NCBI GenBank assembly: GCA_963695795.1
Contig: CAVOHU010000002.1
Span: 341,565 to 405,564 of the forward strand
DNA length: 64,000 bases
Direction of reading: 5' to 3'
DNA from: an uncultured Acidobacteriota bacterium
GTDB lineage: Bacteria > Acidobacteriota > Vicinamibacteria > Vicinamibacterales > JAKQTR01
This document shows positions 58,440-64,000 of the stretch, piece after piece (within the stretch, counting starts at the first letter, position 1; every line of letters starts with the position of its first letter). The notes beneath the pieces are model-generated. The model made no database searches. It was not told where the DNA came from and saw nothing but the letters and a program-made list of their open reading frames with translations. Position numbers and translations under genes: made by a program.

Positions 58440-59438
58440 ATGACGACGAACTTCGCGGCGCTGAACCTGGTTGGTCAGTCACCCGCCTTCCGCCAGGCGC
58501 TCTTGCTCATCGACCGGGCCTCGCAGTGCGACGCCACGGTGCTGGTGCAGGGCGAGACTGGCACGGGCAAGGAACTCGCGGCCCGTGCCATTCACTATCT
58601 CAGTCGTCGACGGGCCGCGCCGTTCGTTCCGGTCAATTGCGGCGCGATTCCCGAGTCGCTCGTCGAAAGCGAGCTCTTCGGCCACACCCGCGGCGCGTTC
58701 ACCGACGCCAAGGAAACGCGCGAAGGAGTGATCGCCCAGGCGCGCGGGGGCACGCTACTGCTCGACGAAGTCGACGCCCTCAGCCCGCGATCGCAGGTCG
58801 CGCTTCTGCGCTTTCTCCAGGACCAGGAATACCGACCGGTCGGCGGACGCATCGTCCACCAGGCCGACGTCCGCATCCTCGCCGCGACCAACGCCGATCT
58901 GGCAGCGATGGCCGCGCGCGGGCAGTACCGTCAGGATCTGCTGTTCCGCCTCGATCTGCTCGTGATCCACCTGCCGCCGCTGCGTGATCGGCAGGACGAC
59001 GCGCGGCGGCTCGCGGAGATGTTCGTCGCGCGCTTCAGCCAGCAGTACGGCACGGCGCCGAGGACCCTCCACCCGGAGACGGTCGCGTTCCTCTCGCGCT
59101 ACGCGTGGCCGGGCAACGTGCGGGAGCTCGAGAACGTCATCCACCGCGAGTTCCTGCTCGGCGAGGGTCCCGTTATCCGCGTGACGTCCGCGCACGCCGC
59201 CGATGGCGCCGCGGCCGCGCCCCACCCGGCGATCGATGAATTGACGTCGCTCGATTTCCGCGCGGCCAAGGCGCGCATCGTCGCCGACTTCGAGCGCTCG
59301 TATCTGATCGAGCTGCTGTCCCGCACGAACGGCAACCTGAGCTACGCCGCGAGAGTCTCGGGCAAGGAACGCAGCCGGCTGGGAAAACTGGTCCGCAAGT
59401 ACGGCCTCGCCCGCCAGCAGTTCTCGAAGAGCCCCTGA
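58440..59438 (+). CDS. Sigma-54-dependent transcriptional activator (bacterial enhancer-binding protein) without an N-terminal sensory domain
   Basis: It begins directly with the AAA+ core ('LVGQSPAFRQ..', Walker A 'GETGTGKE'). It has 'ESELFGHTRGAFTDA' (a GAFTGA-loop variant), Walker B 'LLLDEVD' and 'WPGNVRELEN'. The C-terminal Fis-type HTH reads 'NLSYAARVSGKERSRLGKLVRKYGL'. Confidence 0.9.
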   Translation: MTTNFAALNLVGQSPAFRQALLLIDRASQCDATVLVQGETGTGKELAARAIHYLSRRRAAPFVPVNCGAIPESLVESELFGHTRGAFTDAKETREGVIAQARGGTLLLDEVDALSPRSQVALLRFLQDQEYRPVGGRIVHQADVRILAATNADLAAMAARGQYRQDLLFRLDLLVIHLPPLRDRQDDARRLAEMFVARFSQQYGTAPRTLHPETVAFLSRYAWPGNVRELENVIHREFLLGEGPVIRVTSAHAADGAAAAPHPAIDELTSLDFRAAKARIVADFERSYLIELLSRTNGNLSYAARVSGKERSRLGKLVRKYGLARQQFSKSP

Positions 59439-59577
59439 CCGCACACGCTCTCACGCCCGCCATTGCACGCTGAACGCGACTACTTCAGCCAGGCGTCGCG
59501 TTGGGCTCTCCACGTGCGTCACGACCGCCTCAGTCTGGGGCCGATCGGCCGCAGGCCCGCGCCGGCGCTTTGCTGAA

Positions 59578-59591
59578 TGATCGTCCGATCA
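59578..59591. promoter_or_regulatory. Candidate enhancer (UAS) palindrome
   Basis: TGATCG-tc-CGATCA is a perfect 6-bp inverted repeat about 95-108 bp upstream of the candidate -24 element. Confidence 0.3.
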
Positions 59592-59685
59592 ATCGCATTG
59601 GCCCCAGGGTCCGTACTGACCCGCGCGTCACCGCGCATCGCCACCCGCGTCCGAAATCCTCAATGAATTCCGCACGCAGAGGACG

Positions 59686-59701
59686 CGGCGCGTCGCTTGC
59701 A
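59686..59701 (+). promoter_or_regulatory. Candidate sigma-54 (-24/-12) promoter
   Basis: cGGCGCG-tcgc-TTGCA compares to the consensus TGGCACG-N4-TTGCW. The GG-to-GC spacing is correct. It lies about 50 nt upstream of the first ORF of the eCIS gene string. Confidence 0.45.
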
Positions 59702-59753
59702 CCAAGGCGTCGCGCGTCAGCGTGTTTGCGACAGGAGAAGAAGGTTCGACTTG

Positions 59754-61601: not shown

Positions 61602-61603
61602 CC

Positions 61604-63070
61604 ATGCTGATTTCCCCAAAGACGCCAGGCGTGTACATCGACGAGATCCCGTTGTTCCCGCCGAAGGTGGCCGAGGTCGAGACAGCCATTCCCGCGTTCG
61701 TCGGGTACACCAAGCGAGCCCAGCGGGACAAGGAAGACGACCTGCTGAACAGGCCGACGAAGATCCGGTCGCTCCGGCAGTTCGAGCAGTACTACGGCTT
61801 CGCGCCGAAGGACAAGATCGCCGTCGACGTCGAGGAGGGCGGCGCCGACGCGGACTTCATCTATCGGGTGACCCAAATCCAGGTCAACGAGCCTGTCGGC
61901 AAGGACGGCCTGCGGGCATCGTACCTCTTGTACTACGCGATGCAGCTGTTCTTCGACAACGGCGGCGGCGAGTGCTACGTCGTGGCGGTTGGCGATCTCA
62001 CGAAGATTATCACCGACGCGGACCTGGTCGCAGGGCTCCAGAAAGTCGCGCGCGAGGACGAGCCGACGCTGCTCGTCGTGCCCGACGCCGTGAAGCTCTC
62101 CCTCGCGTCGTACAAGAAGGTCGCCGCGGAAATGCTCACGCAGAGCAAGACGCTCGGCGATCGCTTCGCCATCCTCGATGTCTTCCACGGCTTCAAGGGC
62201 ATCGAGGACGACGAGGACGCGGGCGGCGGCAACACCGACGACCTCATCACCGTCAACCGATCGAGCTGGCTCGACGCGCTCACATACGGCGCGGCGTACT
62301 ACCCGTTCCTCAAGACATCGCTGACCTACTACCTCGGGCCGGCCGATGCGGACGACATGGGCGACAACGTCACGGTCAAGGTCGGCGCCGCCGGCGGGAT
62401 GATGCTGAACACGCTGAAGTCGGGCGCCAACGTCGACACCGCGCTCTACAACACCGTGCTCAAGGCGCTCCGCGAGTCACTTCGTCGACATGCCGCCGAG
62501 CGGCGCCATCGCCGGCGTGTACGCGGCGACCGACACGCTGCGCGGCGTCTGGAAGGCGCCCGCCAACGTCCGCGCTCGACGGACGTCGTCGAGCCGCTGG
62601 TGAAGCTCGACAACACGCAGCAGGAAGGCCTGAACGTCGACGCCGACGGCGGGCAAGTCGATCAACGCCATCCGCGCCTTCGCCGGCAAGGGCACGCTCG
62701 TGTGGGGCGCGCGCACGCTCGCCGGCAACGACAACGAGTGGCGCTACGTCTCGGTGCGCCGCTTCTTCAACATGGTCGAGGAGTCGGTCAAGAAGTCGAC
62801 CGTACTGGGCGGTGTTCGAGCCGAACGACGCGAACACCTGGGTGAAGGTGCGCGGCATGATCGAGAACTACCTGACGCAGAAGTGGCGCGAGGGCGCGCT
62901 CGCCGGCGCGACGCCGAAGGACGCGTTCTTCGTCCAGTGCGGCCTCGGCACGACCATGACGCCGCAGGACATCCTCGAAGGCCGGATGAACGTCGAGATC
63001 GGCATGGCCGTCGTGCGGCCCGCCGAGTTCATCATCCTGCAGCTTCTCCCACAAGCTGCAGACGTCGTGA
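61604..63070 (+). CDS. Contractile tail sheath protein (phage/eCIS type); frame interrupted at least 5 times after 62477
   Basis: The sequence reads 'TPGVYIDEIP..IPAFVGYT'. After hopping frames it continues 'HFVDMPPSGAIAGVYAATDTLRGVWKAPANV', 'GKSINAIRAFAGKGTLVWGARTLAGNDNEWRYVSVRRFFNMVEESVKKST', 'WAVFEPNDANTWVKVRGMIENYLTQKWREGALAGATPKDAFFVQCG' and 'FSHKLQTS*'. Breaks lie near 62477, 62571-62583, 62651, 62802 and 63043. Confidence 0.85.
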
Positions 63071-63132
63071 GCCGGCGACGGCCGAGTGCGATCGACCCGA
63101 ATCGTGAGCCGGTCGACAGAGGGGCTGTGAGC

Positions 63133-63569
63133 ATGCCTGCACAGTATCCGTTGCCAGTCTTTCACTTCACCGTCCAGTGGGGCGGCACGCGCGTCGGCTT
63201 CTCCGAGGTCACCGGCCTCACGCAGGAGAACCAGGCCATCGAGTACCGCGACGGCTCGTTCCCCGAGTACTCGTCGATCAAGATGCCGGGCCTGCGCAAG
63301 TTCACCAACGTCACGCTCAAGCGCGGCGTCGTCAAGGGCGACAACGAGTTCTTCGAGCTGGCTGAGCACGGTCAAGCTCAACACCGTCGAGCGCCGCGAT
63401 CTGATCATCAGCCTGCTCAACGAGGAGCACCAGCCGGTGATGGTCTGGAAGGTGAACAACGCCTTCCCGGTCAAGGTCGAGGGCCCGGCAGCTCAAGGCC
63501 ACCGGCAACGAGGTCGCGATCGAGTCCATCGAGGTCGCGCACGAAGGCCTCGAGCTGCAGAACGAGTAA
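63133..63569 (+). CDS. Tail tube protein (T4 gp19-like / eCIS tube), two frame breaks
   Basis: MPAQYPLPVFHFTVQWGGTRVGFSEVTGLTQENQAIEYRDGSFPEYSSIKMPGLRKFTNVTLKRGVVKGDNEFFE is followed by 'WLSTVKLNTVERRDLIISLLNEEHQPVMVWKVNNAFPVKVEGP' and then 'LKATGNEVAIESIEVAHEGLELQNE*'. Breaks lie near 63358 and 63490. Confidence 0.8.
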
Positions 63570-64000
63570 TGGCGATCTACTACCCGCCCGTCGGCTTTCA
63601 CTTCAAGGTCGAGGTCATTGGCCTCGCGCCGGCGATGGACGACGACGTGCGGTTCAGCGAGGTGAGCGGTCTGTCGGTGGAGATGGCGTACCGAGGAAGT
63701 GCCCGAGGGCGGCGAGAACCGCTTCGTGCAGAAGTATCCCGACGCGCGCGAAGTACCCGGAGCTGGTGCTGAAGCGCGGTCTGCTCAATGGGTCGGGCGT
63801 GCGCAGGTGGATCGCAGGCTGCATCGAGCAACCAGGACATCACGCCGCACAGCGTCGACGTGAAGCTGCTCAACGACGAGCACCAGCCGCTGTTGACGTG
63901 GCACCTGGCGAACGCCTATCCGACGAAGTGGTCGGTGAGCGACCTGAACGCCACGAACAACGCGGTCGTCGTCGAGTCGCTGCAGCTGTTCTACCAGTAC
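63569..64000 (+). CDS. Second tail tube paralog (partial, runs off the window), three frame breaks
   Basis: MAIYYPPVGFHFKVEVIGLAPAMDDDVRFSEVSGLSVEMA is followed by 'TEEVPEGGENRFVQKYP', then 'KYPELVLKRGLLNGSGVRRWIAGCIE', then 'NQDITPHSVDVKLLNDEHQPLLTWHLANAYPTKWSVSDLNATNNAVVVESLQLFYQY'. Breaks lie near 63689, 63745 and 63829. Its ATG overlaps the tube-1 stop (TAATG). Confidence 0.8.

Follow-up and report, generated by a model that had tools for sequence, protein, structure and literature searches.

A sigma-54 activator and promoter at the head of a probable contractile injection system gene cluster in an uncultured Acidobacteriota bacterium

The 64,000-nucleotide (nt) stretch of DNA from an uncultured Acidobacteriota bacterium that we analyzed, hereafter the window, ends in a string of phage-tail-like genes (positions 58440–64000) preceded by a gene for a sigma-54 activator, which raises the question of what machine these genes encode and whether the activator controls it. 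With a probability of about 0.72, we read this segment as the head of a contractile injection system (CIS) gene cluster of the lineage formed by AlgoCIS and by the thylakoid-anchored CIS (tCIS) of Anabaena, with a sigma-54 activator and promoter upstream, and with the base insertions that interrupt its structural genes being errors of the deposited record. On this reading, the locus adds an unexceptional member to a known CIS lineage, with a little-studied regulator.

On the forward strand, between 58.4 and 64.0 kilobases (kb), the genes are ordered sigma-54 activator, 78-amino-acid (aa) open reading frame (ORF), DUF4255 gene, 339-aa gene, sheath, tube 1 and tube 2 (Table 1). A gap of 315 bp separates the activator gene from the 78-aa ORF. 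Further downstream, the DUF4255 gene and the 339-aa gene (start 60582) share an ATGA overlap, the ATG of the sheath gene (61604) follows the end of the 339-aa gene after a 2-nt gap, and tube 2 (start 63569) overlaps tube 1 (start 63133) in a TAATG. This gene order, the strand and the junctions agree with the initial annotation, which had not noticed, however, that the sheath and both tubes are frameshifted in this record.

Table 1 Features at the head of the CIS gene cluster, in window coordinates.
Feature	Coordinates	Strand	Basis
Sensor-less sigma-54 enhancer-binding protein, 332 aa from ATG	58440..59438	+	Pfam, motifs, synteny
20-bp palindrome CTGGGGCCGA/TCGGCCGCAG, candidate activator binding site	59535..59554	.	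Inverted repeat
Sigma-54 type -24/-12 promoter CGGCGCGTCGCTTGCA	59686..59701	+	GG 59687–59688, GC 59699–59700, canonical spacing
78-aa stand-alone winged-helix protein, first gene after the sigma-54 promoter	59754..59990	+	Predicted fold, co-occurrence
Cap (tube and sheath terminator), short one-domain form like Alg16A/All3327, 189 aa	60016..60585	+	Pvc16_N/DUF4255
Cap adaptor (Alg16B/All3326/SalCis16b family), 339 aa, Ig-like middle insert	60582..61601	+	Profile matches, synteny
Sheath, 486 aa after removal of six inserted bases	61604..63070	+	Repaired Pfam, PDB matches
Tube 1, 144 aa after removal of two inserted bases	63133..63569	+	Repaired Pfam, PDB matches
Tube 2 (Afp5-like second tube paralogue), first ~143 codons, runs off the window end	63569..64000	+	Alignment to the second tube of locus L001

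As written, the longest ORF of the sheath gene is 413 aa long and leaves the sheath frame after residue ~291, the rest of the protein lying in the other two frames. Using three-frame translation and frameshift-aware alignment to the nearest intact homologues, a sheath 72% identical to that of the window (P0001) and the tubes of a related locus (L001), we placed eleven single-base insertions between 62477 and 63826. The sheath gene contains six of them (62477, two bases at 62571–62572, ~62647, ~62800 and 63043), tube 1 two (63355 and 63488) and tube 2 three (63689, 63738 and 63826). None of the eleven extra bases lies within a long homopolymer.

Once repaired, the sheath gave full-length matches to the Pfam families Phage_sheath_1 and Phage_sheath_1C, and in the PDB it matched the sheaths of AlgoCIS (7adz_2A, E-value 9.5e-132) and Anabaena (All3325, 8.7e-129), with T4 gp18 and the pyocin sheath at about 1e-7 to 1e-6. 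Repaired tube 1 matched Phage_T4_gp19 over positions 2–134 of 134 (1.3e-46), shared 130 of its 144 residues with the L001 tube, and found All3324 (8.6e-64) and the AlgoCIS tube (4.7e-63) in the PDB, while the repaired tube 2 fragment matched Phage_T4_gp19 at 4.6e-41. For sheath and tube taken together, AlgoCIS and Anabaena rank closest, followed by SalCIS, PVC and Afp and, at a great distance, by T4 and pyocin.

The phage-derived names of these families (Phage_sheath_1C, Phage_T4_gp19) would fit tail genes of a myovirus prophage or of an R-type tailocin, next to which a sigma-54 activator happens to lie. We consider this scarcely credible. The sheath is far closer to CIS sheaths (1e-129 to 1e-132) than to those of T4 and pyocin, a DUF4255 cap accompanied by a cap adaptor is a CIS feature, and relatives from different phyla conserve the activator, promoter and small gene together with the cluster. 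Neither head nor lysis genes were found in the upstream ORFs scanned or in the flanks of relatives (up to 10 kb on either side), and the flanks of the five relatives with the same head (L001 and L097–L100) contain no head genes. The initial annotation had reported no capsid, portal, terminase or lysis genes upstream, and the ORFs that we scanned there (53.8–58.1 kb) bear this out: they comprise toxin-antitoxin genes, helix-turn-helix (HTH) genes and two ORFs of unknown type. The prophage or tailocin with a coincidental activator was rejected on the CIS-type sheath, the cap pair, the conserved regulatory genes and the absence of head genes from the upstream ORFs scanned and the flanks of relatives.

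The eleven insertions are most likely consensus errors of the deposited assembly, and hence an artefact. They are read as errors because further genes of the window show this lesion too, because all 17 frame breaks found in it are +1 events with no deletion among them, because an alignment to an intact relative shows gaps only at the extra bases, and because codon-position divergence does not change past the first of them. Besides the eleven breaks in the CIS genes, five affect an S9 (prolyl-oligopeptidase family) peptidase of ~1050 aa on the minus strand (28990–32341), which is spread over three frames with +1 breaks near 31380, 31190, 30440, 29870 and 29640; when its C-terminal part is stitched, a Peptidase_S9 match spans the junctions. 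The last one, near 36290, splits one long forward-strand gene (34557–37680) into the overlapping ORFs 34557–36644 and 36322–37680. It is followed by a Pro/Gly-rich stretch. Phase changes in third-codon-position G+C at 46.0–46.5 kb were also considered as frameshift sites and rejected, as they correspond to the ordinary gene boundaries of a toxin-antitoxin pair.

The intact relative is a metagenome contig (L095) that carries the same activator, the 78-aa gene (83% identical), the cap, the adaptor and the head of the sheath gene. Over 1413 nt, its sheath gene and that of the window are 87.1% identical in DNA, and the only gaps are the extra bases of the window; the comparison showed no in-frame stops and no 3-nt indels. 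Divergence before and after the first frameshift was 0.076 and 0.072 at codon position 1, 0.065 and 0.056 at position 2, and 0.254 and 0.244 at position 3. Since codon-position divergence is unchanged, the part of the sheath past the first frameshift keeps a signature of purifying selection.

Were the frameshifts real, the cluster would be a recently inactivated and decaying one that no longer makes sheath and tube. The deposited sequence does have the breaks, the gene call of the source itself is a truncated product of 413 aa (P0003), the breaks lie mainly in the structural genes near the window end, and no identical intact copy was found elsewhere. We nevertheless hold decay to be improbable. 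Natural decay in bacteria favours deletions, whereas 17 of 17 events here are insertions; the peptidase (five times) and the other long gene carry the same +1 lesion 25–30 kb away; and the comparison with the L095 sheath revealed neither stops, nor 3-nt indels, nor a rise in first- and second-position divergence after the first frameshift. The practical consequence is that these structural genes are unreadable as deposited, so that annotation pipelines will call them truncated or pseudogenes, though they are probably intact in the organism.

The two genes between the 78-aa ORF and the sheath also bear the mark of this CIS lineage. The DUF4255 product matched Pvc16_N (1.1e-27) and, in the PDB, the Anabaena cap All3327 (7b5i_AA, 2.2e-26) and the AlgoCIS cap (7adz_0A, 4.3e-12), identifying it as the cap. 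The 339-aa protein, which the initial annotation had left as unknown, turned out to be the cap adaptor. Its single-sequence AlphaFold model was unusable (predicted local distance difference test score, pLDDT, of 33). A single-sequence PDB search with this protein returned noise alone, so that a profile was needed. Built from 28 syntenic homologues, this profile matched the AlgoCIS adaptor (7adz_1A, 2.5e-26), All3326 (7b5i_AB, 4.5e-26) and SalCis16b (9r9n_C, 1.7e-19). A profile restricted to close relatives, with the Algoriphagus and Nostoc rows removed, still matched 9r9n_C (2.2e-9) and 7adz_1A (5.9e-5) and made the Ig-like middle segment visible. In nearly all related loci, the same slot holds an ORF of 280–410 aa. 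Cap, adaptor and 78-aa proteins identical to those of the window are present in the sequencing run ERR12036778. A short one-domain cap (Alg16A) with a separate adaptor (Alg16B) is the AlgoCIS arrangement and distinguishes this clade Ib system from Afp and PVC (PMC8894135). In two of the relatives, the calls in this region are irregular: the adaptor and sheath of L099 (2732–5188) are called as a single 818-aa product, and the adaptor of L001 (5449–6450) is split into pieces of 252 and 69 aa. The assemblies of relatives may therefore also carry frame errors or fusions here.

A scan of species-representative genomes returned 80 loci from many phyla with sheaths 47–63% identical to that of the window. 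Nearly all of them show the order cap, adaptor-sized ORF, sheath, tube, tube, (DUF5908), CIS_tube, spike, PAAR, gp25 and two large baseplate genes. The initial annotation had taken the cap-first order as a departure from the Afp/PVC archetype. This order does not set the locus apart: because nearly all 80 related loci show it, as do AlgoCIS and the Anabaena tCIS, it is the norm of the lineage. The relatives that share the activator and 78-aa head (L001 and L097–L100) continue with DUF5908, CIS_tube, spike, PAAR, gp25 and large baseplate genes. Neither the window nor the flanks of the closest relatives, which cover 8–10 kb, reach as far as any genes for a tape measure, an Afp15-type AAA+ ATPase, cargo or toxins (eCIS_core/DUF4157).

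Whether the particle is released from the cell is a separate matter. The PDB entries 7B5H and 7B5I (All3324–All3327) represent the intracellular, thylakoid-anchored Anabaena CIS, and the cap, sheath and tube of the window match All3327, All3325 and All3324 at least as well as their AlgoCIS counterparts, with a sheath that has the length of All3325 and aligns with it end to end. The machine could thus be cell-anchored or cytoplasmic, like the Anabaena CIS or a type VI secretion system (T6SS) of the T6SSiv kind, and not a released extracellular particle or tailocin. Clade Ib is known to include extracellular, arrayed and membrane-anchored systems (PMC8894135). We regard an anchored or cytoplasmic machine as rather unlikely: no feature of the window bears on anchoring, baseplate or cage extensions and any membrane adaptors would sit beyond 64000, and an Acidobacteriota host lacks thylakoids. 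The initial annotation had proposed an extracellular CIS (eCIS) or a tailocin in place of a myovirus prophage. The 5' end of a CIS cluster and the non-prophage nature stand, but the terms extracellular and tailocin cannot be asserted, because one of the two closest solved systems is the thylakoid-anchored Anabaena CIS.

The first gene of the segment encodes the activator. Its longest ORF begins at a GTG at 58401, and the product matches Sigma54_activat (4.9e-61, 167 of 168 positions), AAA_lid_14 (8.8e-20) and, weakly, HTH_8 (2e-4). Because only about 10–22 residues precede the AAA+ domain, the protein has no sensor domain. It contains a Walker A motif (GETGTGK), an L1 loop of the sequence GAFTDA, which is common to this activator and its close relatives, and a C-terminal Fis-type HTH. 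GAFTDA is a natural variant of the GAFTGA-type L1 loop and is reported to be competent for activation (PMC4641369). The best NCBIfam matches were the central domains of NtrC, NifA, NorR and PspF, all under the equivalog cut-offs, with the PspF model covering residues 23–250. Orthologues of 330–346 aa occupy the same position in five related loci (L001, L005, L095, L097 and L102). The activators of L029 (461 aa) and L101 (472 aa), which also belong to loci with this set of regulatory genes, are longer through extra sequence N-terminal to the AAA+ domain; the L029 extension looks receiver-like, by eye alone.

The element CGGCGCGTCGCTTGCA, of the sigma-54 -24/-12 type, lies between the activator gene and the 78-aa gene, 53 nt upstream of the ATG of the latter, and is the sole site in the window within two mismatches of TGGCACG-N4-TTGCW. 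An equivalent site was found 310–345 nt upstream of the cap gene in every activator-bearing locus, namely L001, L005 (Burkholderiales) and L029 (Nitrospiraceae), compared with only two of about 45 other loci and a background of 0.03 per kb per strand under the same criterion. When six intergenic regions were aligned, the GG and TTGCA columns were invariant and the flanks divergent. The motif is also present upstream of homologues of the small protein in 7 of 13 metagenome loci. Sigma-54-like motifs were noted upstream of the cap in Desulfobulbus (L011, 8069) and Sorangium (L013, 8166), with no activator or winged-helix gene within 10 kb. A scan for sigma-70 promoters and terminators between 57.9 and 60.1 kb was uninformative, and an Rfam scan of the window gave no match.

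Judged from these sequence comparisons, sigma-54 control of the CIS genes appears well supported, because the motif is present in activator-bearing loci, its core is invariant, its background is low, and GAFTDA is compatible with activation. The claim of the initial annotation that the locus has its own sigma-54 activator thereby gains a matching -24/-12 promoter conserved in relatives. A palindrome about 140 bp upstream of the -24 element (Table 1) is a weakly supported candidate for the activator binding site; relatives have palindromes at comparable distances, whose sequences are not conserved.

We infer from this arrangement that the activator acts on the promoter at 59686–59701. The sensor-less enhancer-binding protein, transcribed constitutively or separately, would bind upstream of this promoter and open it at the expense of ATP. 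The promoter would then drive one tightly packed operon for the winged-helix protein, the cap, the cap adaptor, the sheath and the two tube paralogues, which past 64000 would very probably continue with DUF5908, the tube initiator, the spike, PAAR, gp25 and the baseplate genes.

The 78-aa protein had no match in Pfam, NCBIfam or PHROG, and its family is rare (47 clusters among 5.8 billion, every one named hypothetical). An AlphaFold model made with the family alignment (pLDDT 90) has the H-S-H-H-S-S topology of a minimal winged helix, and a Foldseek search with it returned generic winged helices alone (Fur DNA-binding domain, eS25 and Z-alpha, E about 0.006–0.04). The gene occurs in 4 of 81 loci, which are exactly those with the activator. 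Other members of the family were found behind an activator, mostly with the sigma-54 motif, in several settings: the pair precedes CIS clusters of other subtypes in L094 (two sheaths) and L102, and a CIS-type AAA+ ATPase with eCIS_core genes in L103. A few members (L101 and L104) lie in other contexts. Because it tracks the activator across differing CIS contexts, the 78-aa protein probably belongs to a regulatory cassette and not to the particle. In L103 (6648–16276), the activator gene is called in two parts, and directly behind it and the winged-helix gene come a 740-aa ATPase with WHD and AAA domains and two eCIS_core (PF13699) genes; as these take the place of cap and sheath, the cassette can evidently occupy more than one position in CIS clusters. 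In the metagenome locus L094, a 183-aa ORF (8302–8853) separates the winged-helix gene from the cap gene of the two-sheath CIS.

PspF with PspA and HrpR-HrpS with HrpV are sensor-less activators regulated in trans. By analogy, the activator described here is likewise cut down to AAA+ plus HTH, with about 330 aa, and the small gene is always adjacent to it; unlike PspA, which is a coiled coil, the small protein is a predicted winged helix. It is therefore tempting, if speculative, to regard the 78-aa protein as the trans-acting partner of the sensor-less activator. Activator, promoter and winged helix might together form a portable control cassette dedicated to CIS, with the winged helix supplying the signal in trans as an anti- or co-activator, a proposal that we put forward tentatively and expect to be wrong more often than right. 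In laboratory culture, most eCIS clusters of environmental bacteria stay silent, and what triggers them is not known. If the proposal were true, environmental eCIS would gain their first defined regulatory switch, which could serve to induce otherwise silent clusters: overexpression of the activator or deletion of its partner would give a concrete handle to switch them on.

Several points weigh against our overall reading of the segment. Eleven insertions fall within 1.35 kb and none in the 4 kb before it, a strong clustering that is at odds with a uniform error process. The protein collection contained no independent intact copy of the exact sheath or tube, the best tube match being 94%, so that real frameshifts are formally possible. 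On the regulatory side, the activator is present in just 2 of the 80 genome loci of the lineage, the intergenic regions of relatives share no conserved activator binding site, and rpoN was not seen within the 64-kb window. Finally, that baseplate, ATPase and cargo genes follow past 64000 in this genome is deduced from relatives alone.

Directly upstream of the regulator, the 5.3 kb at 53150–58440 look island-like. This region has a weak codon-position G+C signal and a lower G+C content (0.59 at 56–58 kb against 0.66 elsewhere), and it contains small accessory genes and two ORFs without a family match (56678–57361 and 57401–58054). The window contains two pairs of a DUF433 antitoxin-like and a DUF5615/PIN_10 toxin-like gene (46120–46560 on the forward and 53889–54970 on the minus strand), the second adjoined by an HTH_37 gene (53889–54182). 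The window also encodes a CarboxypepD_reg outer-membrane protein and, on the minus strand (50641–53277), a duplicated permease of the ADOP family (TIGR03434, 680 bits against an NCBIfam cut-off of 622). The ADOP permease family is characteristic of Acidobacteriota, and both proteins suggest a host of this phylum, going by where such families typically occur.

The initial annotation had described eCIS regulation in this background as poorly explored. Our searches of main texts found no paper joining eCIS with sigma-54, RpoN or an enhancer-binding protein, and the main text of Geller et al. (2021) names GerE, BTAD and RfaH as eCIS regulators and never sigma-54 (PMC8213781). Both the domain and the same gene string had already been tabulated, as the supplementary tables of that study list Sigma54_activat as a weakly enriched eCIS "shell" domain (49 occurrences, odds ratio 1.59, p 0.04; PMC8213781). 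The combination of sigma-54 activator, promoter and winged-helix gene is thus present in a published table but unstudied, and we consider it modestly interesting.

Cluster-encoded sigma-54 activators have a precedent in T6SS, where VasH of Vibrio cholerae and Sfa2 of Pseudomonas aeruginosa activate the sigma-54 promoters of their own clusters (PMC10482370). As in these systems, the enhancer-binding protein described here is encoded in or beside the cluster of a contractile machine, and its function would be similar, judging by the sequence. The machine differs, being a CIS of the phage-tail type and not a T6SS, and no small winged-helix partner gene is described for the VasH and Sfa2 systems.

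Among structurally solved systems, AlgoCIS of Algoriphagus machipongonensis (PDB 7ADZ and related entries) belongs to clade Ib of Chen et al., as cited in PMC8894135. The window shares with it a short one-domain cap (189 aa in the window, 197 aa for Alg16A) followed by a separate adaptor (Alg16B), one sheath gene and a tube, and Algoriphagus loci have the same gene order. In contrast, the AlgoCIS sheath is 692 aa long with extra outward domains, against 486 aa here, identity is just about 48–50% for the sheath and 20–24% for the adaptor, and the loci of other Algoriphagus species (L058, L075 and L081) showed no match to the activator or the small protein. In the PDB, the cap (2.2e-26) and the tube (8.6e-64) find their best matches in the CIS of Anabaena sp. 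PCC 7120 (All3323–All3327), whose sheath aligns over the full length (484 aa for All3325) and whose All3326 is matched by the adaptor profile; unlike the present locus, this CIS comes from a cyanobacterial host, and the Nostoc loci in our scan lack the sigma-54 cassette.

A precedent for the whole string is that of Leptothrix cholodnii SP-6 (Lcho_3032–3038), listed in the eCIStem table of Geller et al. (2021; PMC8213781). Its cluster differs from the window in having a second sheath gene after the tube. By the table description, it otherwise runs in the same order: Lcho_3032 is a 360-aa protein with Sigma54_activat and HTH_8, Lcho_3033 a 71-aa ORF without Pfam match, Lcho_3034 an afp16/DUF4255 gene and Lcho_3035 a 269-aa ORF without Pfam match, followed by sheath and tube. 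By this description, the cassette is also present in a cultured organism, in which its role could be tested.

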